Part shown: positions 1 to 34,090 of the stretch, one piece after another
Numbering within the stretch: position 1 is the stretch's first letter
Layout of the letters: each line of letters begins with the position of its first letter
Source: an uncultured Alphaproteobacteria bacterium
GTDB taxonomy: Bacteria; Pseudomonadota; Alphaproteobacteria; RF32; CAG-239
NCBI GenBank assembly: GCA_944391395.1
Contig: CALXTI010000006.1
Coordinates: 2,503 to 66,502, forward strand
Length of the DNA: 64,000 nucleotides
Direction: 5' to 3'
The notes under the pieces: model-generated
The model's database searches: none
What the model saw: only the letters and a program-made list of their open reading frames with translations
Told to the model about the DNA's origin: nothing
Translations under genes and position numbers: made by a program

Positions 1-467
1 ACGACAAAATGCTTTTACAGCAGGCAACGATGGATTTATATCGGCGGGAAAAAATTAATCCGGCTTCGGGATGCCTGCCTTTGTTTATACAAGTTCCGGT
101 CTTTTTCTCATTGTATAAGGTTTTAAATATATCCATTGAAATCAGGCACGCGCCGTTTGTCGGCTGGATTAAGGATTTGTCGGCGCCTGATCCACTGACG
201 ATTTCAACTTGGTCGCACATACCCTTGCCGGGGTTGATTGATATTGGTGTTTGGCCGATTTTAATGGGTGTTACCATGTGGATTCAACAAAAACTTAACC
301 CCGCTCCGGCTAACAAAGACCAAGCAAGGATGTTTGCGCTTATGCCGCTGATTTTCACCTTTATGTTGGGGCATTTTGCATCCGGTTTGGTCATATACTG
401 GACATTAAGCAACGTCTTGTCCATCTTGCAACAAAGAGCCATTATGCGTAAATATGGAGTAAACTGA
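1..467 (+). CDS. yidC: Membrane protein insertase YidC, C-terminal part. The CDS is truncated at the window start.
   Basis: The conserved YidC motif [25 protein letters not shown] and C-terminal TM helices are present. The reading frame is open from the window edge. The stop overlaps the engB start (ATGA). Confidence 0.85.
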
Positions 468-1105
468 TGAAACACGCCCCTATATTTGATAAAGAAACTT
501 TGGAAAAAGGCAGCAAGCTTTTTACTCGGCCCGCCCGTTTCCTTTTAAGCGTCGCCAATCTGTCACAACTTCCGGAAGGCGATAAAAAAGAAGTGGCATT
601 TGTCGGGCGCTCAAATGTGGGAAAATCAACACTTATCAATGCTTTGTTTAATAATAAAAACATGGCCAAGACTTCTTCAACTCCGGGAAGAACGCAACAA
701 TTAAACTTCTTTGACCTTGACAATCAATTATATCTTGTGGATTTGCCAGGTTACGGATATGCAAAAGCCCCGACTGCCGAAGTCAAAAAATGGCAAGATA
801 TGATTTTTATTTACTTAAAAGGACGGGCTAATTTACAACGGGTTTTTCTATTGGTGGACTGTCGGCACGGTCTGAAACGTGTCGATACGGATGCCATGAC
901 GATGCTGGATAAAGCCGCCGTCCCTTATCAAATCGTCTTTACCAAAAGTGATAAAATAAGCTATAAAGAACTGGTTAAAGTTGTAAACGAAGCGCAAATC
1001 ATCCTTAAAAATCATCCGGCGGGAAATCCGCTTGTTTTGGCAGTCAGCGCTGAAAAACAACAAGGCGTGGAAAATGTTCGCGCCGAAATTGCCAAATTGT
1101 TATAA
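467..1105 (+). CDS. engB: Ribosome biogenesis GTP-binding protein EngB/YihA
   Basis: G1 motif GRSNVGKSTLINAL and G3 DLPGYG are present. The start overlaps the yidC stop, and yidC-engB is a conserved synteny. Confidence 0.85.
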   Translation: MKHAPIFDKETLEKGSKLFTRPARFLLSVANLSQLPEGDKKEVAFVGRSNVGKSTLINALFNNKNMAKTSSTPGRTQQLNFFDLDNQLYLVDLPGYGYAKAPTAEVKKWQDMIFIYLKGRANLQRVFLLVDCRHGLKRVDTDAMTMLDKAAVPYQIVFTKSDKISYKELVKVVNEAQIILKNHPAGNPLVLAVSAEKQQGVENVRAEIAKLL

Positions 1106-1111
1106 GCTTAC

Positions 1112-1140
1112 AAAAAAACCGCTCAAAGCGGTTTTTTATT
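1112..1140. terminator. Bidirectional intrinsic terminator between convergent engB (+) and virB11 (-)
   Basis: A7-ccgc-tcaaa-gcgg-T6 hairpin, with an A-run on one side and a T-run on the other. Confidence 0.6.
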
Positions 1141-1171
1141 TTGCCTGAATGAGCGATTTTGCCTGAACAAG

Positions 1172-2143
1172 CTATGTAACCTCGGTAATGGCGCGCAGGT
1201 TTCCGTCGCGGTTAATTTGCACTACCCTGAGTTTATGGCGCATTTCTTCAATCGTTTTGGCACGATCGATCGTCGGATATGTATGCAAAATACGATCGGT
1301 GAAAGCTTGATATGCGGCTTCCGAACTTTCCGCATGGATGGTCGCCAGGCAGTTATCGTGACCGGAACCCATCAACTCCCATAAGGCACCGGCGTTGCTG
1401 GTCGAAATCTCACCGCCGATAATGGCGTCCGGCGTAAAACGGACGACCAAGTCAATGATTTTTGCATAATCCATTTCGTTCGTTTGCTCGGTACGGGACA
1501 ATACCAAATGCACACGATTTGGGTGCGGGACAATCAATTCCCGCGTATCTTCGATTGTTACAATACGTTTGTGAATGTCCAAAATTTTGAGCAGATTGTT
1601 CAAAAACGTCGTCTTACCGGTTGAAGTTGCACCACTGACCAGAATATGGTCGCCGCGTTTAATGCTCAACAGCAAGCGTTCATAAGGATCTTCCGGGTCT
1701 TTTATCTGTTTCAAAGGATTTATCTTATGCAGACCTTTGCCTTGAGCCAAGCCATAGTCTTCCAGACCGAACGCCACATCATCGCTATGAACGCGGATGG
1801 TCAAGGCAACACCGCCGGTTAAATCGCCTTCGTCATACATGACGTTACGCCCGGCAATCGCTGAAAAACGATGGTCGCCCGGTATAGTGGCGTAAACAAC
1901 CGGTGAACCGGATATCGGATCAAACGGCAGCTCATAAGTGTTGGCAACGATATAAAGCAAATCCGTTAAATATTCTTTGGTCAGTTTTTCATCTTTGTAC
2001 ATTACCCACGGATAAGCTCTTTTACCGCGCAAACGCAGCCAGATTTGCTCCGAACGATTGATTGCAACCTCTTCAATGTTTTCCTGATTATACCAATAAG
2101 CCAACGGGCGCAAAACAGATTCCAAAACCGTAAATGTACTCAT
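1172..2143 (-). CDS. virB11: T4SS ATPase VirB11
   Basis: Walker A GATSTGKTTFLNNLL lies in a VirB11/TrbB-type ATPase core. It is the last gene of the vir operon. The RBS is AAGGA. Confidence 0.9.
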   Translation of the reverse strand: MSTFTVLESVLRPLAYWYNQENIEEVAINRSEQIWLRLRGKRAYPWVMYKDEKLTKEYLTDLLYIVANTYELPFDPISGSPVVYATIPGDHRFSAIAGRNVMYDEGDLTGGVALTIRVHSDDVAFGLEDYGLAQGKGLHKINPLKQIKDPEDPYERLLLSIKRGDHILVSGATSTGKTTFLNNLLKILDIHKRIVTIEDTRELIVPHPNRVHLVLSRTEQTNEMDYAKIIDLVVRFTPDAIIGGEISTSNAGALWELMGSGHDNCLATIHAESSEAAYQAFTDRILHTYPTIDRAKTIEEMRHKLRVVQINRDGNLRAITEVT

Positions 2144-2158
2144 TATCCTTATCCTTTA

Positions 2159-5100
2159 TCAAAACAATTGCGCCGAAGTATTGTTGCTGCCGGCCGTTGA
2201 TGAAGGCGGCGGCGGGGTCGCGCCGGCAGATGTTACGGGCGGAATATTGACCGCGGACGATGGCTTTTTCTGACCGGATGTGGAAGTGTCGTCAATAAGC
2301 GGCATGGTCGCCCGGACATCTTCTGCATTTTCATCCAGATATACCACGCCGCTGGCACCCGGTGAGGTGCCGGTTGTGGTATTGCTGCTGCCGCCGGCAC
2401 TTCCACCGGCGCCACTATTGTCGCTACCGCCGCCTCCCGTTCCCGTCGGATTCCTATCATCAATAAATACCGTCGGTTTCTGTAAATCCTGCAAAGCTTC
2501 TTCTTCGCTGCGTTCAGGCGTTCTTACCCACAAATCTTCTTTCGGATAAATTATCAAGCGCGTACCTGCCGGAACATACGTTACCGCTTCAATATCGGTT
2601 TTATCCTGCAAAATTTGCTCAAACATTGTATCCATGTTATCCAAAAAGTTCTGACGGGCATCTTCGGCAGCTTCAGCGCGGGCGTTTTCAACTGTATTGC
2701 CGTCACTGTCGGTACTGGTTTCGCCGCTGGCGGCAACATAAGCGACAGCACTGCTTAAAAGGTTGGTAACCATCGGCAAAGTATACTTCTTGAGAAGTTG
2801 CTCGTCTAAATAACCCAAAGCTCCGGAACGTCCTTGCGCATCGCCGGTTTGTGCCGAAGAGAACTCAAAAGCCGAACCGTCCGGACGAATCAAACGTGTC
2901 CAGGTGATGGAAACTCTGACCGCACCGCCGCTCGTTCCTCCTCCGGAACCGCCGGAAGAAGTACCCATGACGCGGCTGCCGGCCGGAATAATAATGTTCC
3001 GCCCTTCTTCCGCATAAACATTCCGCTCAACAATTGCCGTTACCGGAACATCTCCGCCGCTGCTGCTGGACATGATTGTTCTGGCCAAAACCGCCGGAAT
3101 CGGCTTGTCTGCCAAAATCATCTCACTCATGTCAACTCGCCAAGACGATATCTGACGCGGCACACCTTCCCAATAATTCTGTCTGCCGTCGAAATCTTCT
3201 CTGCTGACATTCGTTGATAACTTGCCGACGGTGATTTCACCTCGGCGAGCGGCCTGAGCAGCCGCTAATGCCTGCGCACGAACCGGGTCATAACGTTCGC
3301 CCGGACCAAATCCGCCACCCGGGCCCAAGTTGGTCGGTGCCGTTCCGGTGCCATATGCACCTCCGGATCCAAACGTTCCGGCCGGAACAAACATCTGACC
3401 GGCTTTGACATTTTTGGCTTCTTCAATACCGATTAAATTTCCGTCATCGTCCATAATTAAGCCGTCCGGCATTCTTTTGCCTAACAAGTTGCCTAATTTA
3501 TCAATGACATCATTATTCATTAAGATATCACCCAAATAGTTGCCATCCGGAGTTAAGGCTATACCCACGGTCTTTAGTCCATATTCACCGACGTCTTCTT
3601 GCGGTGTCGGAACGGCATCAACCTTGATTTGTCCGGTCGGCGGCGTCGCCCATTCCGCAGGTTTAACCGGCTCCGGTTTATGCACGTTGTAATATTGCAG
3701 TTCGCGCGCCGTTGCCAATAAATTTGCATCATCATCTCTGATTTCGCCGCTGCCGGTGATATGGCCTATTGTTTCGCCTTTTGTATCAACCACTTCTCCG
3801 GTTAAGAGCAATTCACCGATAACTTGATTGTCTTTATCGCGAATAAAGTAATCCCGATTGCCGCGACCAATTAAAGCGTAATTCTTATCAACCAAGAAAC
3901 CTTTATCGGCTTTGCCTAAATTTCCGCCCGAAAAGTTGGCAACCCGTCCGTCTCTGGTTAAATAACCTATCGTATTGCCGTTTTCATCGTAAATATAAAA
4001 ATCATACAAAGCATAACCTATCGGTTTATTATCGGCCACAACCGTACCGTCATGGCGAACTTGTCCCAAGACATCGTTTTTATCGCTGACGACATTACCG
4101 TTTTCCAGAATTCGGCCTAAGAAATTATTGTCATTGTCAAAAGCCACTTTGTATTTGAACAAAAGTCCTAAAATTTCCCCTTCATTTGAAATCGCCGTAT
4201 TATCCGGTCTGACATAACCTATTGTCTCGCTTTTATCATTAATTAATCTGCCATTTAAATCACTGCGGCCGATAATCATGTTTTCAAAATTAATGACCGG
4301 CAACGGCTGCGCAAGTCCGCCAATAAAATGATTATCGGCATTATAGAACCTGCCGTCGCGACGGATGCAACCCAAATTTTCCTGAGCGTAATTAAGCACG
4401 CGGCCGGATATGTTGATTGTGCCGAGAGATTTTCCGTCAAAGTCCGTCACATTACCTGTTTCGACGCCGAAACCAACCACATTGCCGACCTCTGAAATCG
4501 CTTGTCCGTTGGTTAAAATCTTGCCTAAAATAACATCACGGCTGTTACGGATTTCACCTTTGGTGCCGATAACGCCTAAGAATGAACACTCATCGTTTAC
4601 AACGCCTTTAAAATCAATAACTTTACCAATAACGGAATTATTCGTATCTGCCACTGTTTCGGCATCAAGCATAGCTCCTATTTTGTTTCCGGAATAATCA
4701 TAAACATCTCCTTTGAAATCGGCATAGCCTAGCATGTTGCCATTGATGCCGACGGCAAGCAACGCTTTTCCGGCCGTACCGATAACCGGCATTTTGTTGT
4801 CATTTATATCTGCCGAACTTGAAACAAGAGCATATTCCGGCAAAATCTTAGCAATCGGCTCGTGTTTTTCATTCAACAACAAATTATTTTCCGCGGCGTA
4901 ACCTATGTTTGCACCTTCGTTTGTTTTGAAAAACAGCGGATTAATACTCGCGGCGACAACATTGTTTTCCGAATCCACAACCGCTCCGAACTGAGTCAGT
5001 TTATAATTCCGCTCTGCCGGGATGCCTTGCAAATCGCCGTTCAATCCGACATAACCTTCCACCGCGCCGTTTTCTTGATACAGCGCTTCCAAGCCAACCG

Positions 5101-6439
5101 TGTGGCCAATCAACAAATTATCCGCCGAGTAAACATATCCGAACGGCGAAATTTTGGATTTAATACCTTTGTCGGAAAAATCGGAACCTATGCCGCTTAA
5201 ACCTATCAAATTGTTGCTGTTGTCAAAAACCAGCAGATTATCCATGCCGGCGCCCAAAAGTCGACCTATGTTGTCATACATCAGTCTGCCCTTGGCGTAT
5301 CCCAAAGGCGTTCCCGTTGTAGATATAACCGTGCCGTTACGCAAAGATTGCGCAATCAGATTTCCCACATAATCAAACACCGGACCGGATTTAATAATCT
5401 GACCGATAATTTCGCCATCGGCATTCCAAACAAAACCTTTGGCACCGACGGTTCCGACCGTTTCACGCGCTTTGGCAATTTTGCCGCCCGGCATTAAACG
5501 TCCGAGGTATTTCCCTTGTAAATCCGTTGCCGTGGCTGCTATATCCAAGCTAAAACCTATAACCGAACCTTGTTCGTCAACCACTTTATCATCGGCACGC
5601 AAACGGGCAACAGTCTTTCCTTCATTAATAACTTCTCCGTTGTATGCTATCAGTCCCAAATAATTTCCGTAATTATCAAATGCGTAACCGTTAGTTACCA
5701 TTTTACCTATAACACGGTCGTTCTCGTCATAAACATATCCGTTGGCATGCACAAAACCTATGGCTTGGGAGGCAAAATCCGTAACGCGTCCGCCCGGCGT
5801 TACACTGCCGATAAAATTTCCTTCCGGCGAAATAACCATTTTTGCCGAAATCAACTTTCCATCCAAACCAAACCCGTTTCCGGTATTGCGGTAAGCGTAT
5901 CCTAGCGGTGAGATAAAGCCTATGTTTTGCCCCTCCATGCTAATGTATGATCCGTCGCCGGTCAAACGTCCGACCGTTTTGCCGGCATCGTCGTAGACCA
6001 AGCCCGGATATAATACGGAGCCGAGGATATTATATGAATCGTCAACCACCAAAGCGTTGGGCAATACTTTACCGACAATCTTTCCGGAAGGAAGTCGCAC
6101 GGAACCATCGTTGTTCACCCTTCCCAACAATTTGTTATCATTGCCGACCGCTATCCCTTGAGGAATAACGCCGCCGATAAGCTCTCCTTTTGCATTCACG
6201 ATAAAGCTGTCTGCAGTTACATTGCCGATGATGGCGTTATCAAAGCTGACAACCGTACCATCAGGGATAACCTTACCAATCAAATCACCGTTAAAATCTA
6301 TGGCCGTAATTTCCTGCGCATACACCGGTTTAACCGCCAATAAAATTGCGGCAAGGCTTATGTTAAACCATAACGCTATTTTTCCGACTTTGCCAAACAC
6401 CTTAATTCCTCCGATTTTGCGCAACATCCTGTAAAGCAT
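2159..6439 (-). CDS. virB10: Giant VirB10/TrbI-family protein (1426 aa). It has a signal peptide or TM anchor, about 900 aa of degenerate ~17-aa tandem repeats, a C-terminal VirB10/TrbI barrel domain, and a Gly/Ser/Pro-rich tail.
   Basis: The C-terminal region (VPVTAIVERNVYAEEGRNIIIPAGSRVMGT...VRVSITWTRLIRPDGSAFEF...LLSSAV) is characteristic of the TrbI/VirB10 family. The N-terminus MLRKIGGIKVFGKVGKIALWFNISLAAILLAVKPVYAQ looks like a signal peptide. An alternative GTG start at 6400 is preceded by GGAGGA and lies 1 nt after the stop of the upstream gene. That start would remove the 38-nt overlap. Confidence 0.8.
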   Translation of the reverse strand: MLYRMLRKIGGIKVFGKVGKIALWFNISLAAILLAVKPVYAQEITAIDFNGDLIGKVIPDGTVVSFDNAIIGNVTADSFIVNAKGELIGGVIPQGIAVGNDNKLLGRVNNDGSVRLPSGKIVGKVLPNALVVDDSYNILGSVLYPGLVYDDAGKTVGRLTGDGSYISMEGQNIGFISPLGYAYRNTGNGFGLDGKLISAKMVISPEGNFIGSVTPGGRVTDFASQAIGFVHANGYVYDENDRVIGKMVTNGYAFDNYGNYLGLIAYNGEVINEGKTVARLRADDKVVDEQGSVIGFSLDIAATATDLQGKYLGRLMPGGKIAKARETVGTVGAKGFVWNADGEIIGQIIKSGPVFDYVGNLIAQSLRNGTVISTTGTPLGYAKGRLMYDNIGRLLGAGMDNLLVFDNSNNLIGLSGIGSDFSDKGIKSKISPFGYVYSADNLLIGHTVGLEALYQENGAVEGYVGLNGDLQGIPAERNYKLTQFGAVVDSENNVVAASINPLFFKTNEGANIGYAAENNLLLNEKHEPIAKILPEYALVSSSADINDNKMPVIGTAGKALLAVGINGNMLGYADFKGDVYDYSGNKIGAMLDAETVADTNNSVIGKVIDFKGVVNDECSFLGVIGTKGEIRNSRDVILGKILTNGQAISEVGNVVGFGVETGNVTDFDGKSLGTINISGRVLNYAQENLGCIRRDGRFYNADNHFIGGLAQPLPVINFENMIIGRSDLNGRLINDKSETIGYVRPDNTAISNEGEILGLLFKYKVAFDNDNNFLGRILENGNVVSDKNDVLGQVRHDGTVVADNKPIGYALYDFYIYDENGNTIGYLTRDGRVANFSGGNLGKADKGFLVDKNYALIGRGNRDYFIRDKDNQVIGELLLTGEVVDTKGETIGHITGSGEIRDDDANLLATARELQYYNVHKPEPVKPAEWATPPTGQIKVDAVPTPQEDVGEYGLKTVGIALTPDGNYLGDILMNNDVIDKLGNLLGKRMPDGLIMDDDGNLIGIEEAKNVKAGQMFVPAGTFGSGGAYGTGTAPTNLGPGGGFGPGERYDPVRAQALAAAQAARRGEITVGKLSTNVSREDFDGRQNYWEGVPRQISSWRVDMSEMILADKPIPAVLARTIMSSSSGGDVPVTAIVERNVYAEEGRNIIIPAGSRVMGTSSGGSGGGTSGGAVRVSITWTRLIRPDGSAFEFSSAQTGDAQGRSGALGYLDEQLLKKYTLPMVTNLLSSAVAYVAASGETSTDSDGNTVENARAEAAEDARQNFLDNMDTMFEQILQDKTDIEAVTYVPAGTRLIIYPKEDLWVRTPERSEEEALQDLQKPTVFIDDRNPTGTGGGGSDNSGAGGSAGGSSNTTTGTSPGASGVVYLDENAEDVRATMPLIDDTSTSGQKKPSSAVNIPPVTSAGATPPPPSSTAGSNNTSAQLF

Positions 6440-9400
6440 AACCTGCTACATTTTTATCCAAATTAACAAATGAACCGTTGTTTTTCAAATATCCGATATT
6501 TTCTCCGGAAGAACCGGATACTTTCCCGCCCGCTTCCAAACGTCCGACGTAATCACCGTTATCCGAAAGAACGGCGGTGCCTATTTTGTATATCGTCCCG
6601 AAAACATTGTTTTGATTATCTATCGCCAAACCGCCTGACAGCACTTTGCCGATAACGACATTGCCGCTGTTCCTGATTGTTCCGTCAAAGCCGACATAAC
6701 CGGCCACTTGGTCTTGATTGTTAATCACAATATCTCCCGAAACCGTTTCTCCGATTAGACGGCCTTCCGAGTTGACCGCTTTGCCGTCGGAATACACTTT
6801 GCCGATAACGACATTGTTGGTATTGATTACGGAACCGTCCGGCATAACCGTTCCTATTATCTTGCCGCCAAAATCTATCACCACACCTCTTCTTAACACG
6901 CTCAAGCCTTTATCCGTCGAGCCACCGGGCAAAACGGCCGTCATTACTTTGCCCGTTAAATCGGCAACATCGCCGATGGCATTCGTATAACCGCTGTAAT
7001 TGCCAAACATGTCTATCATTAATGCCATCGGAACAACTTCTCCCAGGACATTTTTTTCAGCATCAAGAATTAAGCCGTCTCCGCTTTCGTATCCGGTTGT
7101 CTGACCTGATGCGCTCACCACGTTTCCGTCGGCTTTGACATATCCAAGATACGAACCATCGTAACCGATGGCTGCCCCGGGTACCACAACGCCGCCGGCA
7201 TACAAACCTTTGTCATTCAGCCACCTGCCTTTGGCATCTATGCGGCCAAGATATTCGCCAAAACGCGTCAGCACTCTGCCGTCCGGATTGACGAACCCGA
7301 CTTTTTGACCGGACGTGTCAACAACGGCTCCGGTCGGAAGAACTTTCCCGACATTGCCGGAATAAAAACTCAAACCGTCTCCGTATATTTTATCAACAAC
7401 AACGCCTTTCCCGTCATAAACGTTGCCGTCGGCAAAAAGTCTTCCCAAAATATCACCGTTGGAATTAACGACAATGTTTCTTTCAGGAAATGCAACCCCG
7501 ATAATTTTATTGTTGCCGTTAACAATGTATTTATGCAGCAGCAAACGGGCGTCAGGATATTGTTTGAGTATCAAAGAGCCGTCATTTTCGAAAGTGTTTA
7601 AATATGTTCCGTTGAGGTCAAAAGCATAAAACTTATCAATCAAATTTCCCTGATAGGCGCCATCTTCATTAAAGACTTCGCCGTCTTCATTGCTGCAACC
7701 GATGGGCAGCATGGCTCCCGACACGACCGTTCCTCCCGGCGTCATGCGACCGATTGTTTGTCCCTCTGCGTTGACGGCTGTTTTATATTGTGCAACTTTG
7801 CCGATAATGTCGCCGTTGTCATTCAAAACCGTTCCGTCAGGATTAACACAACCGACATATCGCTTATTGTCCGTTTGCACGATGCCTTGCTCGTTTGCCG
7901 TTCCCAAATAATTACACTGACGGTCAAAAACTCTCCCTACCGGTACGACGTTGCCTAAGAACTGACCGTTTACATTATAAACACCGCCGTCCGGATAAAT
8001 GCTATAAGGCATTTCTTGCCCGTTCTTTGTAATCGTACCGTCTTGGTTGAGCTGGCCGACATTGCTGCAGCCCCAGCCGACAATCGTTCCGCCTCTTAAA
8101 CCGCGGGCAATTATTTTTGACCCATTCGCATCACGAATTAACGTATTGGGCAATATGCGCCCGAAGACCTGACCTTTTTCATTAACAATCTCGCCGGTTG
8201 ACGAAACAGCGCCCAAAATTGTTCCCGCAGGTGTTACCGGTATCAATTCCATCCGGACGACAGAACCGATTTTTACGGCTTGATTGCTGATGATGTTGCC
8301 GTCTTTATCTACATGGCCGATGACTTCGCCGTTTCTGCCGATGACTTCGCCTTTGCTGTTAATGTAACCGATAACGTTGCCGTTTTCGTCAAGCGCCAAA
8401 TTGACATATTCACCGGCACGACCGATAATATTGCCATTTTTATCAACGACCGTACCATCTTCCAACATTCGGCCGATAACATTGCCGTTGGCATCCAAAA
8501 TTGTTCCGTCTTCCAAAATCTGACCGATTTTGTTACCGTTAAAATCAATAATATTGCCGTTTTCATCAATGTAGCCTATCGGATTGCCGTTCTCGTCATA
8601 ATACAAACGTCTTGAAGGACCCATTTTGCCGATTTGTTCGCCGCTTAATTTGTAAGCATCACCATTTTCATCAACATAGCCGACAACATTGCCGTTCTCG
8701 TCGACAATAGAATTATCCGGCATTACCACGCCTATCGGATTGCCGTTTTCATCAACGGCGGTTTGGCCGGAACGACTGACATAACCGATAACGTTGCCGT
8801 TCATGTCGACGACCTCGCCGTTTTCATTCATACGGCCGATAACGTTGCCTTCCATATCCACAACCGTTCCGTCTTCCAAAACCCGGCCGATGATATTGCC
8901 GTTTTCGTCATAAACATAGCCGGCATCAACCCCTCTGCCAATGATGTTTCCCACGCTGTCGACAATGGTGCCGTCGGCATTTAAATGTCCTATCGGGTTG
9001 CCGTTAAAATCAACCGCCTGTCCATCGGCCGTGACATAGCCGATAACATTACCGTTTTCGTCATAAATCAGTTTTTTATTGCCGGCAACGCCGATGATAT
9101 TGCCGTTTTCATCAACGATGAGACCGTCTTCGTTTACGCGACCGATGATATTGCCGTTTTCGTCCCGAACGTAGCCGTCTTCATCAATATAACCTATAAC
9201 TTCGCCGTTCGGTCCGTACGCAATCCGCGTTTTGGTCTCATCGGCCGTCACTTTGCCAATGACGTTGCCATCTTTGTCAAGCACTTGATTGTTGGTATTG
9301 ATGATGCCTAATTCGTTACCATTCAAGTCTACCGCACGGCCGTCCGGCGTAATATAACCGATAATATTGCCGTTTTCGTCCCGGATGACCATGCCTTCGC

Positions 9401-10028
9401 CCAAATCAGACCCCGGCGCCGTGGCACAGAAATTGCAATCTTCTTTGCTGATGGCATTGCCGTCAACCGGAATCTTTTGCGCTTTGGCGTTTTGAGCGCT
9501 GACATTTGTTTCGTGCCAAGAAACAATAAAATTGTTTTGGACGTTCCCGGCAACAACCGGCGCCCAGTTCATGGTAATGTTACAAGTCTGATTGCCGCGA
9601 AGTTCCGCGCTTGTGCAACCATCGCTGTATGTGAAACCGTCAAAGGGCGGTTCGGCCAGTTTTACCGAAACAATGCGAATGGCGGCTTTGCCGTTGGTGC
9701 CTATCGTAAGCACGTTTTTGGCTTCCGTTCCCAAAACAACCTGTCCCATATTGACCGGGTTCGGCGTTGTGGTTATCGGCAATTCGCCTTCTTCAACGTC
9801 TTCAAACTCAATATTGTCCATTAACGGATTGACATTATTTCCCAAATTTAGAGCGTCGTCATCTTCGGTAAAAACAGGCTCTTCATATTCCGTCGTCGGC
9901 GCTCCGCTGGAAAACAAAAGCAGAAGTCCAAACAAAAACACGACAAAGGAAGTGATACCAACGATTAAAATAATACGATTGGTTTTACGAACATACCTTT
10001 CCGAATGGGTTAAGACTTCTTTGCTCAT
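6402..10028 (-). CDS. Membrane-anchored tandem-repeat protein (1208 aa). It has an N-terminal cytoplasmic segment, one TM helix, and then dozens of 17-aa repeats with consensus DENGNIIGxVxxDGxVV that degenerate toward the C-terminus.
   Basis: The TM segment is IILIVGITSFVVFLFGLLLLF. Counting residues gives a repeat period of 17 aa, which equals 51 nt. The gene is located between virB9 and virB10. Mirror-image antisense ORFs in the track (DNIAVF...) are a side effect of the nucleotide periodicity. Confidence 0.7.
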   Translation of the reverse strand: MSKEVLTHSERYVRKTNRIILIVGITSFVVFLFGLLLLFSSGAPTTEYEEPVFTEDDDALNLGNNVNPLMDNIEFEDVEEGELPITTTPNPVNMGQVVLGTEAKNVLTIGTNGKAAIRIVSVKLAEPPFDGFTYSDGCTSAELRGNQTCNITMNWAPVVAGNVQNNFIVSWHETNVSAQNAKAQKIPVDGNAISKEDCNFCATAPGSDLGEGMVIRDENGNIIGYITPDGRAVDLNGNELGIINTNNQVLDKDGNVIGKVTADETKTRIAYGPNGEVIGYIDEDGYVRDENGNIIGRVNEDGLIVDENGNIIGVAGNKKLIYDENGNVIGYVTADGQAVDFNGNPIGHLNADGTIVDSVGNIIGRGVDAGYVYDENGNIIGRVLEDGTVVDMEGNVIGRMNENGEVVDMNGNVIGYVSRSGQTAVDENGNPIGVVMPDNSIVDENGNVVGYVDENGDAYKLSGEQIGKMGPSRRLYYDENGNPIGYIDENGNIIDFNGNKIGQILEDGTILDANGNVIGRMLEDGTVVDKNGNIIGRAGEYVNLALDENGNVIGYINSKGEVIGRNGEVIGHVDKDGNIISNQAVKIGSVVRMELIPVTPAGTILGAVSSTGEIVNEKGQVFGRILPNTLIRDANGSKIIARGLRGGTIVGWGCSNVGQLNQDGTITKNGQEMPYSIYPDGGVYNVNGQFLGNVVPVGRVFDRQCNYLGTANEQGIVQTDNKRYVGCVNPDGTVLNDNGDIIGKVAQYKTAVNAEGQTIGRMTPGGTVVSGAMLPIGCSNEDGEVFNEDGAYQGNLIDKFYAFDLNGTYLNTFENDGSLILKQYPDARLLLHKYIVNGNNKIIGVAFPERNIVVNSNGDILGRLFADGNVYDGKGVVVDKIYGDGLSFYSGNVGKVLPTGAVVDTSGQKVGFVNPDGRVLTRFGEYLGRIDAKGRWLNDKGLYAGGVVVPGAAIGYDGSYLGYVKADGNVVSASGQTTGYESGDGLILDAEKNVLGEVVPMALMIDMFGNYSGYTNAIGDVADLTGKVMTAVLPGGSTDKGLSVLRRGVVIDFGGKIIGTVMPDGSVINTNNVVIGKVYSDGKAVNSEGRLIGETVSGDIVINNQDQVAGYVGFDGTIRNSGNVVIGKVLSGGLAIDNQNNVFGTIYKIGTAVLSDNGDYVGRLEAGGKVSGSSGENIGYLKNNGSFVNLDKNVAGYALQDVAQNRRN
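8250..9330 (-). repeat. Most regular core of the 51-nt in-frame tandem coding repeat array. A degenerate array extends from about 2900 to 9350 across both giant genes.
   Basis: Near-identical 20-25-nt cores recur every 51 nt. Examples are ccgataacgttgccgttttcgtc and ccgatgatattgccgttttc. Confidence 0.7.
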
Positions 10029-10044
10029 TGTTCTCCTATCCGTT

Positions 10045-11664
10045 TTATTGCACCCTTACAACGCTGCAGAAAACACCGTTGCGGCCAAGCTGGCTGCAAA
10101 TATTGTCGCCGGCATCAATCGATGAAACCGGACCTATCCTTAAATGGAACAGTTCCTTTCCCTGTCCGTCAGCCGGAGCGTCAACCGAGTAAAACGGTTG
10201 ATACGAGCTTAAAACTGAAGAATATTTCCTTGAAAGCTCGCTCCACAGATTTTCCAAATTGCTGACATCGGCATCCGTTCCGAGTTCAACCGAGATGCTG
10301 GCGGCATCGCTCCCTTCAAAGCCACTGCCATAGCGATATTTTGCAAAAACATCTTCATCATCGCCGGACATTGTTTTACTTTGATGCGGCAGCCGATGCA
10401 TTTTGCTGTAATCTATCCCATCATCGGCATCGCCGGCATATTTCGGCGACAACAATTCGCCGTCCGGGCCGACCCGCATTACGTTTTCGCCGACGACCTC
10501 ACCTTCCGTACCTTGACCTATGTTTCTTCCGTTTTGGGTTGAACCATTGTCATATCCCGAATTACGGGAAGAACGATTGGCAGCTGTCGCCGAAGAAGCT
10601 GCCCCTCCCGGAATTGCCGGCGGAACATCCCAATCATTCGTTTCGGCGTATGTAACATTATCCAATCCTTCGGCATCGTCACGACGCATTTTCAGGCAAA
10701 CAATACGCTTGCCGTTGCGCAACACCATGTCGCCGACACCTTCGACAATAATCAAACGATTGTTCGGCCCTTTCGTTCTGAAACCGACCGGCGTTTCAAC
10801 CCGTTCGACAATCAAGGTAACAATCGGACGTTGTATCATATTCAACGCCTTTTCACCCAAATCAATATAAGTGAAAATGTCATCATGCCAGACGCGTTCC
10901 GGCGCAATCACAACGTCATCCGGATTTGGCACATAAATTTCAATATCAAAGCGAAATTGAGACGGATCAAGCGGAATGCTTTTTATCCAATCTTCTTTTT
11001 GGAAACGTTTGGTAAAAGTTGAATCAACGGAATGATTATTGTTTCCGCGGTAAGAACTGGCATTAACGTGTCCGCCGCCGGAGCCGCTGCCAAGGCTTCC
11101 GACGGTGCTACCATTTTTTCCCGAATCAACCACTTCTATGTCAATAATCGAGTTAGTCAAACGTTCTGTATTCACCCCTTCGCTGCGAGCATAGAAAACA
11201 TATTTGTTGCCGGAACGGCCAAAAACAATGATGTTGGTGTCCACACCGACCATCGCGCCCTGCTTAGGATACAAAAGCAAAGTGCTGGGACCGGAAATTC
11301 TGCCGTCAAAGGTTTTGCTGTCGCCGATGTAGACGTCTTCAACCAATTCCCATTCCGGAAAATTAACCAACGTTATCATGCCTTCACGCAATCTTATCGG
11401 CAAGACCAAATCCGGCGTCCAGTAATAACGCGAATACGCCGGCTTGCTTTGCCCTTCGCCCAAATTTTGCAAAGGATCAAGCCATGCGCTTTGCATCATG
11501 CCCAGAGAGCTGATGCCTGTATAGCCCATGTTCATCGGCTGATACATTCCCTGGCTTTGATCCGCGTTTTGATTCAAGCTGTCTATTGTTGCCTGCCCGT
11601 TAGCCGCAAGCGGGATTGCGGCAAAAGCAAGAGCTGAAAAAATTTTTGTCAGATAACGTTTCAT
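10045..11664 (-). CDS. virB9: VirB9/TrbG-family protein with a C-terminal extension (539 aa). The extension is glycine/serine-rich and ends in a SPOR-like segment.
   Basis: It has a signal peptide MKRYLTKIFSALAFAAIPLAANGQ. Both VirB9 N- and C-domains are present (for example DDVVIAPERVWHDDIFTYIDLG). The C-terminus ELFHLRIGPVSSIDAGDNICSQLGRNGVFCSVVRV resembles a SPOR peptidoglycan-binding repeat. Confidence 0.75.
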   Translation of the reverse strand: MKRYLTKIFSALAFAAIPLAANGQATIDSLNQNADQSQGMYQPMNMGYTGISSLGMMQSAWLDPLQNLGEGQSKPAYSRYYWTPDLVLPIRLREGMITLVNFPEWELVEDVYIGDSKTFDGRISGPSTLLLYPKQGAMVGVDTNIIVFGRSGNKYVFYARSEGVNTERLTNSIIDIEVVDSGKNGSTVGSLGSGSGGGHVNASSYRGNNNHSVDSTFTKRFQKEDWIKSIPLDPSQFRFDIEIYVPNPDDVVIAPERVWHDDIFTYIDLGEKALNMIQRPIVTLIVERVETPVGFRTKGPNNRLIIVEGVGDMVLRNGKRIVCLKMRRDDAEGLDNVTYAETNDWDVPPAIPGGAASSATAANRSSRNSGYDNGSTQNGRNIGQGTEGEVVGENVMRVGPDGELLSPKYAGDADDGIDYSKMHRLPHQSKTMSGDDEDVFAKYRYGSGFEGSDAASISVELGTDADVSNLENLWSELSRKYSSVLSSYQPFYSVDAPADGQGKELFHLRIGPVSSIDAGDNICSQLGRNGVFCSVVRVQ

Positions 11665-11684
11665 ATCTTAATACACCTTTTTAC

Positions 11685-12431
11685 TTATTCCGCCTCATTG
11701 TGCGAAAGCGAATACCTGGTTACGGTAAACCCGACCGGATTGTTCAAGCGTTCGCCATACTTAACAACTTTTTTTCGATACATAATCCTTAAAGAGGCTG
11801 TCCAGTAGTTGACTTCCGGAGCCGCAGAATCCGGATACATATCCCGGGTTTCATACTCCACTTGCCACAAACCTCTGCCCAATTCATTGACGGTCATAAT
11901 CCGCACCATGCGATTTAATCCCCTGGTTCTGATAATATCCAGAGCCTGATTGGCCGTGCGGTCGATAAACGCCTGATAAACCGTCGGCGTTGACATTTCC
12001 TGCAACGGTCCGCCCGGCATCCAGCGAGATTCCATCTCCTGAACGTCATTGGTGAAAGCGCTTCTTAAAAGCACATACTCACGTACAAAAACTTCCGTAA
12101 TGGCTTTTTGATCTTCCATATTGGAAAGCGGTACAATATCATACACCTGTTCTTCCTTGTTTTCAAAAGTCAAAAGAAAAGGCTCTATCCGATACAAGGG
12201 AAGAAGTTGGGCAATCGCCAAAATTAAAACAAAATTGCAACACAAACTGATGGCCACGACCACGGCAAATGCACGAGCCGTCCATAAATATCTTTTTTCA
12301 CTTGCGTTGACGACAATCTCGTCTTCTTCACGACGACGCGGCTGAGGCCGACGAACAACTTTCCGCGGCATGGCGTTTCCGTTGCCGAGCAAACGTTGTT
12401 CCGTGTTGTTTATGCCTAAACGATCCGCCAT
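11685..12431 (-). CDS. virB8: VirB8 (bitopic, NTF2-like periplasmic domain)
   Basis: It has an N-terminal TM helix. The REYVLLRSAFTND motif and the C-terminal NPVGFTVTRYS signature are shared with the paralog at 12774-13532. Confidence 0.8.
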   Translation of the reverse strand: MADRLGINNTEQRLLGNGNAMPRKVVRRPQPRRREEDEIVVNASEKRYLWTARAFAVVVAISLCCNFVLILAIAQLLPLYRIEPFLLTFENKEEQVYDIVPLSNMEDQKAITEVFVREYVLLRSAFTNDVQEMESRWMPGGPLQEMSTPTVYQAFIDRTANQALDIIRTRGLNRMVRIMTVNELGRGLWQVEYETRDMYPDSAAPEVNYWTASLRIMYRKKVVKYGERLNNPVGFTVTRYSLSHNEAE

Positions 12432-12438
12432 AATACAC

Positions 12439-12627
12439 CTATATCGTTGCTACAAACCAATCCGGAAGTGTTTTTGGTAATTCTATTTCAATGCATGCGC
12501 ATGGCGAAAGTTTCAGTTCGTTCACATCTTTACCTATGCCGACCGGTTCCGGCTCATAATACGAACCAAACAGCCCGCATGCCGATAAAATCAGAATAGC
12601 AATCAACAAAACAACTTTTTTATACAT
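12439..12627 (-). CDS. virB7: Small lipoprotein, a VirB7-like candidate (62 aa)
   Basis: The signal peptide has a lipobox (LLIAILILSAC-G). Its small size and position between two virB8 genes and upstream of virB9 match the rvh-type order. Confidence 0.5.
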   Translation of the reverse strand: MYKKVVLLIAILILSACGLFGSYYEPEPVGIGKDVNELKLSPCACIEIELPKTLPDWFVATI

Positions 12628-12773
12628 TGCAATGTTCCTTTTATATATGTCCAGACATTATCACATTAAACTTTTTCTTTTTAAAAGTCTAACATGAAGC
12701 TCTTACATCCCCAACTTATCAACAAGTTAGAAGAATGTTTTATGGTATCATAAATGAAAAAGATTAATATAAA

Positions 12774-13532
12774 TTAAAGAATTTCAACTTCCGTTTGAGA
12801 ATATCTTGTCACGGTAAAGCCTAAAGGATTCATCAAGCGTTTTGACATGAACAGGCGCTCAGGCACGAAAAATGCCGTAACAGAAGCCGTCCAATACTTT
12901 GTAACAAGAACCAAACTTCCGGTTGCATCGTTACGAACATCGGGCGACAGGTCATAAGTGCGAAAATCAACTTTCCATACCGGACTTTTTTCGCCGCCGA
13001 CTTTGCCGATGGATATAATTTCCACATCACGCACGATTTTGTCTCGAAGCAATCTGTTGAGTTCTTGTTCACGACCTTTGTCGAACTCGGCAAAAACTTG
13101 CGAAGACGACATATATGCGACCATGCCGCCGCCAAACCACCGGGTTTGCATTTCTCGTTCATCGCTTAGCACCGTGTTGCGCAAAATAACATACTGACGG
13201 ATAAAGTTTTCCATCATCTGCCTTGAAGACGCCATATCGGGTGCAATCGGCTCATAACGTACCATTGTATCGGAGCTGTCTTGCCGGATAATCAAAAACG
13301 GTTCCACCATCACTTCCGGAGCTAGGCGAAACAACACCAATGAGGCACTGGCAAAAAAGCCCAAAGACAGAATGGCAAACAAAATCACCAACCGCGACAA
13401 CCAGCAATAATAGCTCTCTTTAGCGCCTTTTAATTCAGGGCTTTGATCCGTCACATACTCAAAATGCGTTTGCGGTGCATTGGCATCGGTAATTGCCAGT
13501 GTTTTATTGCCATTTCCCAGTTGTTCTACCAT
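12774..13532 (-). CDS. virB8: VirB8 paralog
   Basis: It has a TM helix, the IRQYVILRNTVLSDEREMQTRW motif and the C-terminal NPLGFTVTRYS signature. It is a paralog of the gene at 11685-12431. Confidence 0.8.
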   Translation of the reverse strand: MVEQLGNGNKTLAITDANAPQTHFEYVTDQSPELKGAKESYYCWLSRLVILFAILSLGFFASASLVLFRLAPEVMVEPFLIIRQDSSDTMVRYEPIAPDMASSRQMMENFIRQYVILRNTVLSDEREMQTRWFGGGMVAYMSSSQVFAEFDKGREQELNRLLRDKIVRDVEIISIGKVGGEKSPVWKVDFRTYDLSPDVRNDATGSLVLVTKYWTASVTAFFVPERLFMSKRLMNPLGFTVTRYSQTEVEIL

Positions 13533-13543
13533 TTTTTGTCCTG

Positions 13544-16500
13544 TTATTCATAAACTATGCAATACGGTTCTTCAAAATTATTTAAATTATCTTCAAACAC
13601 GTCTTGCGCTTCTTTATCATATTCATCGCGCGCGGCATTGTCGGCCTGCTTGCTTTTAATTTTTTCCGCAAGCTCGCTGTCGCCTGCCATGTTGTCGTTT
13701 AGCTGCACCAGCTCATCGCTGTCCATCTGCAACGCACCGGCAATATTATCGACTTTGGTTAATTTTTCTTCCAAAACATCGTTGAGCGGCTGAATCGATT
13801 GTATAATGTTTACAGATTCTTCAACATAGTCGTTTTTGGCAGAATCAAGCGCCGACATAATTTCATTATAAGTATCATCGTCCGAAAGGTCAAAGTCTTC
13901 TGCCGGTTTATATTCGACATCCTCAAGTTGTTCCTTGATTTTCTGCCGAGTGTTTTCTACTTTGACATCCAGCTGATCCAAATTGTCCTGATAGAGCATC
14001 TCCTGTTCGATAAAATCCAAGAAATTGCCAAATTGATTACGCGTCAACAATTCTTTTTTATAAATATCCTCCAACGCCAAATCTTCTTCGCTCACATCAC
14101 CGGCCGTTTCCAGATTTTCGTAAAATTCCATAATCTTTTGTACACGGTCGCTAAAAGTCAGGCCATCTTTATAAGCCAAGACGGTCGCCAGTTCACTCGT
14201 CAATTCTTTTTCCGGAACTTTGTTTAAAGTGCCGCTCACGCTGCCGTCAACAAGATGAACCTGAACAAAGTAACTCACTTCACCTGTTAGCTCATTTACA
14301 TGACGCGTGATGCTGATTGAATTGATGTCGGGACAAACCCGGTTGATATTGCCGGTAGCGCCGGAGACATGATACTGACCGTTGCGGATTGTAACATCAT
14401 ATTTGCCGGTTGTGCAGGGATATCCCGGTTTGATGGCATCAAGCGCGGCCGAATTATGCGATAAGATTTTTTCAATATCGACATCTCTTTCCACAAAACC
14501 TTTCCGACCTAAAATCCGCTGCCAAATTCCCGGTAAATCTTGCCCCATGTCAAGGAAATCTTCTCTTGTCGTCATCCAGGTGTCTGATTTGATAATATCG
14601 GCAAAATCGACCGTGTCAAAATGTATGATTTCACGCAGCGGCGCCGTCGGCGTCGTGGCAATAATTTCGGGCGCCATAAAGTCTCGCGGCTTGGGCGGCA
14701 ACCCGACGAAATATTCATCATCGCTTTTATAACACGCATCACCCGGACAAATTTCGGCAAACGCGGCTTGCGTGATTATTTCTTCGGCAATGCCGTTAAT
14801 CGCCGATGGACTGCCCAAAAGCGACAATAACGTTCCGGTTATGGAAATATCAATTTCGGGACGCTGCATATTATTCAACATACGTTTATGAATAGCGACA
14901 ATTTCGTTGTGATAATCGCTTTCGAAACGATTGTTTTCCATGTTATCAATAGCTTCGGCCGCATTTCTGATTTCTGCCAACATCTGACTGCGGACGCGTT
15001 CCGCCGCATTATCCGAAACATTAATCATAGCGCTCAGAATCGAGCGGGTAACACTGTTTGCCCCCGTGGTCGTTCTTAAAATGCCGGAAAGAAAATCGCT
15101 CTCGCCAAGCGTTTGAGACGAAACATCGTTTTGAAGAGCAAGCAAAGCATTTTTTACCGTGGCAAGGCTTTGTGCTTCCAAGCTTGACGCATCAGCGGCA
15201 AAATCGTTTTTGGCGCGGGTGATTTCTTCTTCTTTATCCGCCAATTCGATTTTAAGTTCATCAATGCTTTCACGCTGTGTTTCTATGCCCGGCAAAACGC
15301 TTTCCGCCGTTTGTTCAGCTTCGGCAATCGCGGTATCGGATTCAGCCATTGATGATTCCGCCGTCGCTTCAAAATTGCTCATGGAACCCGGAGATTTTGC
15401 CTTACGTTCCTGCGAAATTTCAATGACGACTTTTTGCCCTTCTATGTTTCCTTCGGCGGAGGCCTTATCTTCCATAGCCGTATTATAGGTTGTCTTCAAA
15501 TCATTTAAGGCTATGTTTTCGTTGTCAAGATTTTCATATATGGAAGTTTTCTGGTTGTTCAACGAAGCCATCTTGGCGTTAAAAGAGTTGCGCAAGCCGT
15601 CGATTGCTTTGTCAACATTATCCTGAACCTCCTCAATATTTGCAAACGCCTGAGAAATTGACGCATTTTCTTTAAGTGCGTTTTCCAGTTTTTCCAAAAC
15701 CCGGCTGTTATATTCTTTGATGTCTGAAAAACTGAGCGTTTCGCTTATCATGCCTTTGGAAGGAATCATGTCGTTGATTTTTTGCGCAAGTTTGATAACA
15801 GAGGGACGCAAATCCATCGCTTTGACATAAATTTCCATGTTTTTATATTTTTCATTCAAATACTGATCATAAACAAGCTTTACATCATCCCACATGGGGT
15901 ATTCGGCTTTTACCGCCCCCCATTCCGACGTGCCGGCGACCATATCTTTGCCAAGTTGTTTGGCGGCTTCGGCGCCGATTTGCCAGGAAATCAAGCCCTG
16001 TTCCCGAATAGTTGCTTCCGTTTTCGGCTCATCACTCGGACGCAGCAAAGAACTGTCCGCCGTGCCTGATGACGCCTCAGCGCCGTACTGCTCGTTTAAA
16101 GAGCTTAATTGCGAAACATCCGCCTCTACGCTTTCATCGGTCATGCTGGCGGCAAAGTCCTCCATTCCGAGATCAAGCGTTTTTTCTGCTTTGGCGGCTT
16201 TGTACGCCGAAATCAGCCATCCGGAAAAGCCCTCGCGGCTTGAATAATCGGTTACATCATAGCTGCTGCAAATTTTAGATTTGTTGTCTGCGCATAAAAC
16301 ATCTCCCGGCAACAGATTTTTCAATGTTTCCGAGGTTAATTGGCGGTCCGTATCACATGAAATCGTGCGGCCGTTCCTTTTGCAGCCGCGGCCATACCAC
16401 ATTTCCACCGGGTCCGTATAATAGTTGCCGACATAATTTACGTTGCAGCTTTCGGATTTCAGCAGCTGTTCCACGGCTTTTTCGTGCAAGGCTTTCATTT

Positions 16501-28778: not shown

Positions 28779-28859
28779 TAAGTGTTTTGTTAAGCTTGAT
28801 TATTTAATTTGCAACCTATATGATTGGAAAATATTATGTGTGACAAAGGGGATTTGAAC

Positions 28860-29603
28860 ATGAATAAAAAACTATTTTTACTGGTCTGCTTAGCGGGCAT
28901 GGCAGGCTGCGCACACCAAAACTCCACATACACAGCGCCATGCACGGGGCCAAATTGTCCGGCTCGGGTTGTCGCCGCGGAGGATGTTGTGCTGCCGCCG
29001 GACGATTATATCTGCCAAACAACAAATGATCCGGAATTATGTCCGTCCGACCCGTTTGTCAATTATACCGGGACCGCTGCCGACTTCAGAGAATACGGCG
29101 AAAGAACGCCGCGTGATTCAATGATTTCGCAGGCAGGCGCCGGAAACAACCTTGCCGCATCCATTCCGCCATCAATCGAAGATGAAGTTATTGAATACGA
29201 AGAACAAATCAATCCGGAAGGGGATTTGACGGCAATCGCCGAAGAAACCGTCGAAGAAGATGTTTCCGAAACGGATGAGGACGGCGTAAGCGGCAACATA
29301 GAAGATGAAGAGGGCATGGAAGATATTGAAGATCCCGTCCAAGACTGGCTGGCCGAAGAAGGGCAAAATTTAAAGGCCTTGTTGACGGATTGGAGCGAAA
29401 AGTCAGGTTGGCGCCTGGTTTGGAACACAAACCGCAATTATGTTTTGAGCGCCGGCGCCATGTTCAGAGGACGCTTTGCCGATGTCAGCTCGGCTTTAAT
29501 CAGAGCTTTTGCCAGAGCGCGCCCGGCACCGATTGCAACGTTTTATAAAGGAAACCGTGTTTTAGTGGTTGAAACAATGGAGGATGAGAATGCGTATGAA
29601 TAA
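28860..29603 (+). CDS. pilL: PilL-like lipoprotein with a TcpQ-like C-terminal domain
   Basis: It has a lipoprotein signal MNKKLFLLVCLAGMAGC with a GGGGA RBS upstream. It has an acidic linker and a C-terminal GWRLVWNTNRNYVL... motif typical of the TcpQ/PilL family. The longer ORF in the track starts at 28824. Confidence 0.55.
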   Translation: MNKKLFLLVCLAGMAGCAHQNSTYTAPCTGPNCPARVVAAEDVVLPPDDYICQTTNDPELCPSDPFVNYTGTAADFREYGERTPRDSMISQAGAGNNLAASIPPSIEDEVIEYEEQINPEGDLTAIAEETVEEDVSETDEDGVSGNIEDEEGMEDIEDPVQDWLAEEGQNLKALLTDWSEKSGWRLVWNTNRNYVLSAGAMFRGRFADVSSALIRAFARARPAPIATFYKGNRVLVVETMEDENAYE

Positions 29604-31242: not shown

Positions 31243-31257
31243 CGGAAAGGAAAAACC

Positions 31258-34075: not shown

Positions 34076-34090
34076 CAGGGTTGTCGAAAA

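Follow-up and report, generated by a model that had tools for sequence, protein, structure and literature searches.

Two adjacent genes on the minus strand of an uncultured alphaproteobacterium are largely filled with copies of a single 17-residue repeat, which raises the question of what such long arrays are for and where in the cell they reside. The genes lie in a stretch of 64,000 nucleotides (GenBank assembly GCA_944391395.1, contig CALXTI010000006.1, positions 2,503 to 66,502), referred to here as the window and numbered from its first letter. Gene A (6402..10028) encodes a protein of 1208 residues with a predicted inner-membrane anchor and hairpin repeats, matching the Pfam families Bflower_2, DUF3659 and Bflower. 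Gene B (2159..6439) encodes a homologue of the type IV secretion system (T4SS) subunit VirB10, with matches to Pfam TrbI and Bflower_2; it comprises 1426 residues, or 1413 from the start at 6400 that is used in public gene calls. A preliminary description of the repeat, made from the sequence alone, was largely right in what it observed and is partly supported in what it made of the observation; the type IV secretion identity of the genes, with B as VirB10, did not figure in it. The answer that we favour, and hold to be on balance probable, is that the hairpin arrays make up the periplasmic bodies of two neighbouring VirB-type T4SS subunits, and that A and B are a giant VirB10 that has been split in two and is rejoined as a scaffold.

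VirB10 is the one T4SS subunit that spans both membranes, and energy is believed to reach the outer-membrane gate through it. The canonical protein has an inner-membrane anchor, a Pro-rich region that crosses the periplasm and a barrel that lines the outer-membrane core. Gene B carries the latter two (all features of A and B are on the minus strand). Residues 1104-1312 (2504..3130) make up the C-terminal VirB10/TrbI barrel domain, within which residues 1108-1303 match TrbI (PF03743) with 108.9 bits against a cut-off of 35 (E = 3.7e-31) over profile positions 2-186 of 188. The NCBIfam equivalogs are not reached (T4SS_VirB10, 92.5 bits versus 220; T4SS_ComB10, 113.1 versus 300); judged by sequence, B is a divergent member of the VirB10 family and not an equivalog. 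A Pro-rich linker of 47 residues (913-959; 3563..3703) includes B 921-955 (KPEPVKPAEWATPPTGQIKVDAVPTPQ..), which is predicted to be disordered: the predicted local distance difference test (pLDDT) score falls below 50 at the corresponding residues 880-914 of an AlphaFold2 (AF2) model, the sole disordered stretch of that model. Three to four more hairpins, with strands at model residues 916-965, and then a Gly-rich linker occupy residues 960-1097 (3149..3562), and a low-complexity Gly/Ser/Thr/Pro-rich tail (1313-1426; 2162..2503) ends the protein in AQLF. The gene also stands where a virB10 is expected, between virB9 and virB11.

The cytoplasmic tail and inner-membrane helix of a canonical VirB10 are not found on B; both are on A. 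We infer that B starts instead with a cleaved Sec signal peptide (residues 1-41; 6317..6439), with the predicted cleavage site between VYA and QEITAIDF. Of 53 orthologues, 47 have A and 5 have S at position -1 of the site, 31 have A and 15 have V at position -3, and 43 have Q at position +1; the n-region has a median net charge of +4, and the leader is hydrophobic and poorly conserved. A nearly invariant QEITAIDFNGDLIGKVIPDG comes directly after the cleavage site, and the identity of these orthologues to B of the window rises from 0.19 before the site to 0.80 beyond it. The mature protein would then open with a diverged hairpin block of fixed length (residues 42-912; 3704..6316) that contains about 51 hairpins.

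Gene A has an N-terminus of the VirB10 kind. Its first 41 residues (9906..10028) comprise a cytoplasmic tail, MSKEVLTHSERYVRKTNR, that is almost invariant among orthologues, and a predicted membrane helix at residues 19-37, the single strong hydrophobic segment of the protein (Kyte-Doolittle hydropathy, KD, 2.93). Residues 86-167 (9528..9773) resemble an Ig-like domain of the ASH/choice-of-anchor-D type, placed in the periplasm, with both matches below the cut-offs of their models (Pfam ASH, 5e-4; NCBIfam choice_anch_D, 1.4e-5). A CNFC motif follows this domain at about residue 198. Then come idealised 17-residue hairpin units that vary in number between species (residues 203-597; 8238..9422) and a diverged block of fixed length with about 36 hairpins and conserved Cys and Gly columns (residues 598-1208; 6405..8237), giving A a total of about 59 hairpins. 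In the canonical VirB10 topology, all that lies between the barrel and the anchor (or signal peptide) is in the periplasm. The periplasmic location, one of the two offered in the preliminary description, is favoured by the membrane helix of A, the signal peptide of B and the position of the arrays N-terminal of the VirB10 barrel, and the conserved cysteines of the Ig-like domain and of the fixed blocks fit an oxidising compartment.

The link between the two genes comes from relatives in which they are one. Ten proteins from other metagenome-assembled genomes (MAGs) and metagenomes combine, in a single chain of 1498-2363 residues, an A-type N-terminus, repeats and a B-type TrbI domain. The Ig-like domain of A is matched in all ten (E from 1e-8 to 4e-16), and so is the TrbI domain of B (E from 1e-38 to 1e-71; 39-54% identity). 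The tail-plus-helix segment of A is matched by blastp in eight of them (5e-12 to 8e-4); P0272 and P0325 gave no blastp match below 1e-3 to the 60-residue tail and helix segment. The fused relatives thus have the tail and helix in the same chain, as a canonical VirB10 does. In all three contigs examined (P0037, P0044 and P0068), the fused gene directly follows virB9 and no separate A gene is present, and virB11 comes after the fused gene wherever the contig extends that far. These giants were found by an exhaustive search of representatives, most of whose other matches were unrelated multi-Ig proteins sharing the Ig-like domain only; a word-index search with the N-terminal 205 residues of A gave almost only contig-end fragments. 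In related genomes, one chain encoded at this operon position carries the parts of both A and B, so that at the sequence level the two look like halves of a giant VirB10 that has been split. The split state is a derived arrangement of the giant protein; fission could have produced it, or else duplication with later reciprocal loss. Taken together, A and B (2549-3805 residues) are longer than the fused proteins.

B and most of the fused giants also have in common a low-complexity tail after TrbI that is rich in Gly, Ser, Pro and Gln and ends in F (..LF, ..IF or ..MF); the seven giants that end in F are P0234, P0244, P0272, P0302, P0315, P0325 and P0037. The F-ending tail is reminiscent of the C-terminal signal of outer-membrane proteins.

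What fills the space between anchor and barrel is a strictly periodic repeat. Autocorrelation of A 215-590 peaks at lag 17 with an identity of 0.362, compared with 0.093 +/- 0.014 in shuffled sequences, and with 0.205 in A 590-1208 and 0.185 in B 40-900, lag 17 ranks first there as well; protein autocorrelation found no lag-17 signal in B 900-1426. In A, 18 cases of GxxIG motifs 17 residues apart occur. An iterated hidden Markov model (HMM) of the unit identifies 22 consecutive units at A 203-581 with the consensus D-E-N-G-N-[VI]-I-G-[YR]-V-x-[EP]-D-G-T-V-V, in which G4 and G8, the glycines of NG..IG, are invariant. The repeat is carried by only two open reading frames (ORFs) of the window, with E values of 7e-93 and 5e-20, the next best ORF scoring 0.78. 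The HMM recovered the consensus given in the preliminary description, and autocorrelation does confirm its 17-residue (51-nucleotide) period, in the protein at lag 17 and in the DNA at lag 51. The reported span of 2900-9350 has to be redrawn: the repeats run from about 3410 to 9422, and 2900-3410 codes for the Gly-rich linker and part of the TrbI domain. The decay of the repeat toward both C-termini holds for A; the array of B is degenerate throughout.

The structure of the arrays is predicted with confidence. AF2 models of A 196-640 (27 orthologues; pLDDT 84.4, predicted TM-score (pTM) 0.59) and of B 42-1010 (32 orthologues; pLDDT 89.9, pTM 0.83) are all-beta, and each 17-residue unit is modelled as a single beta-hairpin, whose strands of 5 and 3 residues are followed by a DG turn and a DxNG turn, respectively. 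The B model has 103 strands in its first 872 residues, with a strand autocorrelation of r = 0.71 at lag 17, and in the A model a longer strand recurs about every 51 residues. Both the beta-hairpin nature of the repeat and the very long all-beta extracytoplasmic array that had been anticipated are thereby backed by modelling (one hairpin per unit; pLDDT 84-90). A Foldseek comparison of the A model with solved structures places Rhs/YD shells on top (8uy4, E = 3e-18; 8qja; teneurins) with TM-scores of 0.08-0.10, values so low that the likeness to Rhs/YD is a local similarity of hairpins only. For the B model, the local matches consist of modules with six strands and about 50 residues, and a sequence search of the PDB with A returned no homologous chain. 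In these models, the global fold is without a solved counterpart.

On sequence grounds, the repeat belongs to the beta-flower/DUF3659 families and is locally similar to YD/Rhs hairpins. Bflower_2 (PF21785) matches A in 12 stretches with 256.2 bits (2.9e-77) and B with 184.5 bits (5.1e-55) against a cut-off of 38; Bflower (PF21784) matches A with 121.6 bits (2.9e-35) and B with 58.4 bits (cut-off 25), and DUF3659 (PF12396) matches A in 4 stretches with 127.8 bits (1.4e-37) and B with 36.1 bits (cut-off 24.8). Some orthologues are named 'DUF3659 domain-containing protein' by NCBI. The YD/Rhs models respond weakly to A as a whole protein (RHS_repeat, PF05593, 47.8 bits, cut-off 22, 1.8e-12; TIGR01643 YD_repeat_2x, 46.1 bits, cut-off 15.8, 4e-12), no single stretch being significant in either. 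The preliminary description had seen no obvious known family here, and half of that view has to be given up: the family exists, with scores of 256 and 184 bits for Bflower_2 and with Bflower and DUF3659 passing in both proteins; its function is not well characterised.

Beta-flower families were defined in 2023 from models in the AlphaFold database, with function unknown (Durairaj et al. 2023, PMC10584680). Their unit, a beta-hairpin 'petal', carries a semiconserved [DNEQ]xxG motif on its tip; the described members are domains of ~100 residues that form closed shallow barrels of 8, 10 or 12 strands with 4-, 5- or 6-fold symmetry, and many of them enclose a C-terminal hydrophobic helix or bear a lipoprotein signal, features that are common and not obligatory (PMC10584680). 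The petal is recognisable here: the consensus has the D-E-N-G turn with its invariant G4 and a second D-G turn, and DSSP of both AF2 models gives strand5-turn-strand3-turn in every 17 residues; a helix of at least 4 residues is absent from both models, and where A has its membrane helix, B has a signal of the signal-peptidase-I type and no lipobox. The likeness thus extends to strong HMM matches (PF21785 and PF21784, clan CL0395, and DUF3659), the hairpin petal, and a bacterial and extracytoplasmic setting. The difference is one of scale and context: beta-flowers are small closed barrels, whereas 36-59 hairpins follow each other here in an unbroken run without helices, and a family that had no functional context would here form part of a secretion machine.

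A comparison of block lengths, measured between conserved anchor motifs across species, divides each array into a part that evolution has held constant and a part that it has not. The idealised block of A varies from 331 to 817 residues. Its diverged C-terminal block remains at 609-624 residues (standard deviation (SD) 3.8; 41 species), and the diverged N-terminal block of B at 866-872 residues (SD 1.4; 37 species at 41-98% identity); the segment of B before TrbI is likewise fixed, at 132-147 residues. The variable segment of B spans 45-1018 residues, and with 47 the window is about minimal, retaining the Pro-rich linker alone, while alignment columns show that idealised 17-residue units fill this segment in other species. 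Between close species, the indels of A fall inside the idealised block and measure +17 residues (84% identity) or -51 and -102 residues (94-95% identity). These 51- and 102-residue steps, the autocorrelation of B, which is stronger at lag 51 than at lag 34, and the longer strand that recurs about every 51 residues in the A model point to a super-unit of three hairpins. The fixed blocks are near multiples of 51 residues (611 ~ 12 x 51; 869 ~ 17 x 51), and those of both proteins (A 598-1208, B 42-912) hold a few cysteines that are invariant or nearly so across species.

These observations can be assembled into a working model. The hairpin arrays would form a large and rigid all-beta scaffold in the periplasm, around or beneath the outer-membrane core of VirB7, VirB9 and VirB10. 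The fixed diverged blocks (about 611 residues in A and about 869 in B) would supply specific contacts, and through them the inner-membrane half A would be rejoined non-covalently to the outer-membrane half B, a connection that a canonical VirB10 makes within one chain. The idealised blocks would be tolerant extensions that lengthen or shorten by entire hairpins, frequently in threes, over evolution and not within populations. A bolder version, which we put forward tentatively and think less probable than not being so, is that this is a new class of T4SS machine in gut Alphaproteobacteria, in which two proteins replace the covalent VirB10 bridge and the arrays (about 51 hairpins in one chain and 59 in the other, presumably in many copies) form a giant all-beta periplasmic cage or stalk of unsolved fold. 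If true, such a machine class would give the beta-flower/DUF3659 repeat its first functional role.

Several points weigh against the split-scaffold model. The association of A with B is one that we infer from sequence context. The lengths of A and B do not co-vary (Spearman -0.06, p=0.67, n=50), and there is no sign that the variable blocks pair or jointly measure out a fixed distance. The C-terminal block of A and the N-terminal block of B align best, by BLAST, to an overlapping region of the fused proteins, which leaves the evolutionary route, fission or duplication, ambiguous. The signal peptide of B rests on sequence rules and conservation, and the segment may be an uncleaved signal anchor. 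Finally, the array could take the shape of a rod, a ring segment, stacked six-strand modules, closed 'flowers' or a superhelix.

One rival looks to the surface of the cell. By analogy with CagY, the arrays would be displayed on the surface or in a pilus-like sheath and touch host or target cells, and changes in copy number by recombination would tune the system or hide it. Exposure to the host has been argued for repeat-variable VirB10 homologues, among them CagY and DotG (PMC6761968, PMC2194252, PMC5954226), the range of lengths between species is wide (across loci, A 1101-1702 and B 1330-2366 residues), and these bacteria inhabit animal guts. We nevertheless consider it unlikely. The arrays sit between helix or signal peptide and the TrbI barrel, a region that is periplasmic in canonical VirB10, and the largest blocks are strictly fixed in length, the opposite of what a region under antigenic variation would show. 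A CagY-type recombining repeat has similar DNA copies and frequent in-frame length variants, and neither was found here. At 8260-9390, the DNA identity at lag 51 is 0.465, compared with 0.31 at other in-frame lags, and a control gene, virB4, has no lag-51 peak; the DNA repeat families comprise 4-11 copies with 60-76% identity, the most frequent exact 20-mer is present 3 times and the most frequent 12-mer 7 times, and Tandem Repeats Finder (TRF; window 1-14000, minimum score 30) reported no period-51 array. The repeat is visible in the protein and by autocorrelation, not as a tandem array in the DNA, and the near-identical cores of 20-25 nucleotides said to recur dozens of times were an overstatement. 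Nor does length vary in the populations sampled: 13 variants of B, 99.0-99.9% identical, are all 1413 residues long with no indels (one further member of the variant cluster differs in its C-terminal part only), an identical protein A is present on 23 metagenome contigs, and A orthologues at 85-88% identity retain exactly 1208 residues. An apparent 17-residue polymorphism among near-identical VirB10 clusters (1552/1553 versus 1569/1570 residues) consists of end gaps only and reflects alternative start calls.

About equally improbable is that the arrays mainly bind peptidoglycan or another envelope polymer and so anchor or place the machine rather than link A to B. Such binding is possible and compatible with the split-scaffold model; as the main role, it would leave both the split and the strictly fixed block lengths unexplained, and Pfam and NCBIfam scans recognised no peptidoglycan-binding domain in A or B. 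Far less credible is a closed YD-repeat shell around a cargo or toxin that the system would deliver, suggested by the RHS_repeat and TIGR01643 scores of A and by its Foldseek matches to Rhs shells and rejected on structure and domain content, no closed shell, Rhs core, autoprotease or C-terminal toxin having been found and the TM-scores being what they are. The preliminary description's own reading, in which the repeat family is new and the locus hypermutable, with 51-nucleotide units that expand and contract by slipped-strand mispairing, can draw on a real 51-nucleotide periodicity and on unit-sized indels between species, but is hardly tenable, as the family is already in Pfam, the DNA copies are too diverged for slippage and form no TRF array, and the population sampled shows no polymorphism. 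Expansion and contraction do occur between species, in steps of 17, 51 and 102 residues, and not within the population sampled; the locus is not a slippage or contingency locus.

A and B are embedded in a run of secretion genes on the minus strand, in the order VirB2/TrbC-like pilin, VirB4, four proteins without family, VirB8, lipoprotein ORF, VirB8, VirB9, A, B and VirB11. The VirB9/CagX homologue directly upstream of A (10045..11664; CagX 1.2e-10) has a C-terminal SPOR domain (2.4e-4), of the kind that binds septal peptidoglycan, at residues 465-537, a combination weakly present in the fused-type relative L085 as well. Directly downstream of B lies a VirB11-type ATPase (1172..2143; Pfam T2SSE 4.5e-22). 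Two VirB8 paralogues (12774-13532 and 11685-12431; Pfam VirB8, 8.9e-22 and 6.2e-15 for the pair) flank an ORF for a 62-residue lipoprotein with the lipobox LSAC (12439-12627), which by position and size is likely to be the VirB7 analogue; small ORFs are called between the virB8 copies of related loci too. VirB4 is encoded at 21660-24146 and the VirB2/TrbC-like pilin, 387 residues and unusually long for such a protein, at 24506-25669; it has an N-terminal TrbC/VirB2 region and three hydrophobic segments, and its C-terminal part matches 'bacterial collagen, middle region' below the cut-off. A protein of 1394 residues (13544-17728) with one N-terminal hydrophobic segment and no Pfam or NCBIfam match occupies the same operon position in all related loci, and the neighbouring ORFs of 622, 237 and 436 residues have no family match. 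By hydropathy, no multi-helix VirB6-like protein was seen among the unassigned ORFs of the operon, and neither a VirD4 coupling protein nor a relaxase was found among the window ORFs scanned (1-2143 and 26964-28778 noted).

Beyond virB11, on the other strand, lie the housekeeping gene engB (467-1105) and the end of yidC (9-467). At its other side, the secretion operon adjoins a type IVb pilus-like cluster (28824-38504) with TcpQ-like, secretin, R64 PilO-like, T2SSE ATPase, T2SSF platform and bundlin-like pilin genes, of which a second T2SSE ATPase is on the opposite strand (37545-38504). It is followed by an AddA/AddB-type pair on the minus strand (39054-45376), one protein with a UvrD helicase and a PD-(D/E)XK nuclease domain and the other with a PD-(D/E)XK nuclease; these are ordinary chromosomal genes, an indication that the secretion operon is chromosomal and not on a plasmid fragment.

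A scan of species-representative genomes yielded 54 loci with full-length relatives, all of them in MAGs of uncultured Alphaproteobacteria from the gut or rumen, the sources being human, mouse, deer, goat and chicken; among them are 'Azospirillum sp. 51_20', UMGS149 and Candidatus Scatocola faecigallinarum (NCBI order Rhodospirillales), and the genomes probably belong to the GTDB RF32/CAG-239 group. The order 436-residue protein, 1394-residue protein, VirB8, VirB8, VirB9, A, VirB10, VirB11 is invariant in more than 50 loci. Operon components other than A and B keep their length across loci, the 1394-residue protein being given as 1172-1573 residues.

A natural lineage in which VirB10 was enlarged and then cut in two offers a ready test of how much the covalent link between the membranes matters. 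The beta-hairpin would be a third way of enlarging VirB10, beside the alpha-helical repeats of CagY and the pentapeptide repeats of DotG, and the beta-flower/DUF3659 repeat, so far known from predicted structures only, gains a concrete cellular context. The Alphaproteobacteria concerned are widespread, uncultured inhabitants of the gut in humans, mice, ruminants and poultry. The searchable literature yielded no description of a hairpin-expanded, split VirB10 and nothing on the secretion systems of these bacteria.

How does this locus compare with systems that are already known? With the YD/Rhs shells of Rhs effectors, TcB/TcC and teneurins it shares local hairpin sequence and 3Di states, YxYDxxGNxIG here standing beside the YD motif. 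The rvh system of Rickettsiales, also an alphaproteobacterial one, resembles it in its duplicated virB8 and its virB8-virB9-virB10-virB11 cluster (PMC2653234); a small lipoprotein ORF lies between the virB8 copies here. The rvh paper (PMC2653234) describes no giant or split VirB10, and the present operon has a single virB9, no virD4 after virB11 and no VirB6-like gene that was seen; membership of the rvh group is not claimed.

VirB10-family proteins with large variable repeats N-terminal of TrbI are known in DotG, with pentapeptide repeats, and in CagY (PMC6761968, PMC5954226). By analogy, CagY, and DotG with its partner DotF/IcmG, would be the closest functional counterparts. DotG/IcmE of the Legionella type IVB system has a TrbI C-terminus and a highly variable repeat middle and ranges from about 1000 to >1500 residues (PMC6761968). 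Its repeats are pentapeptides, whereas here they are hairpins; the present system is of the VirB type (VirB8, VirB9/CagX, VirB11) and not Dot/Icm, and A is probably derived from VirB10 itself. A Micavibrio MAG (L059, 7180-11436) encodes a DotG/IcmE-like protein of 1418 residues with a TrbI C-terminus, downstream of two DotI genes and one DotH gene; its repeat region is 38% identical to A 214-578 and has a weak Bflower match. This suggests that hairpin insertions into the VirB10/DotG family arose more than once.

Helicobacter pylori CagY, at about 1900 residues comparable in size to the fused relatives, likewise has a VirB10/TrbI C-terminus after a very large repeat region, and it too belongs to an expanded T4SS. 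Its repeats are alpha-helical modules (PMC2581425), in contrast with the beta-hairpins of A and B; the underlying DNA repeats are highly similar and undergo in-frame recombination in the course of infection (PMC2194252, PMC5954226), whereas the DNA copies here are diverged and no population polymorphism was seen. CagY holds its 5' and middle repeat regions in one protein; the protein described here is split over two genes. The locus is therefore of a known kind, the repeat-expanded VirB10 exemplified by CagY and DotG, and what is new about it is the beta-hairpin nature of the repeats, their division between two genes and a DNA sequence free of recombinogenic repeats.

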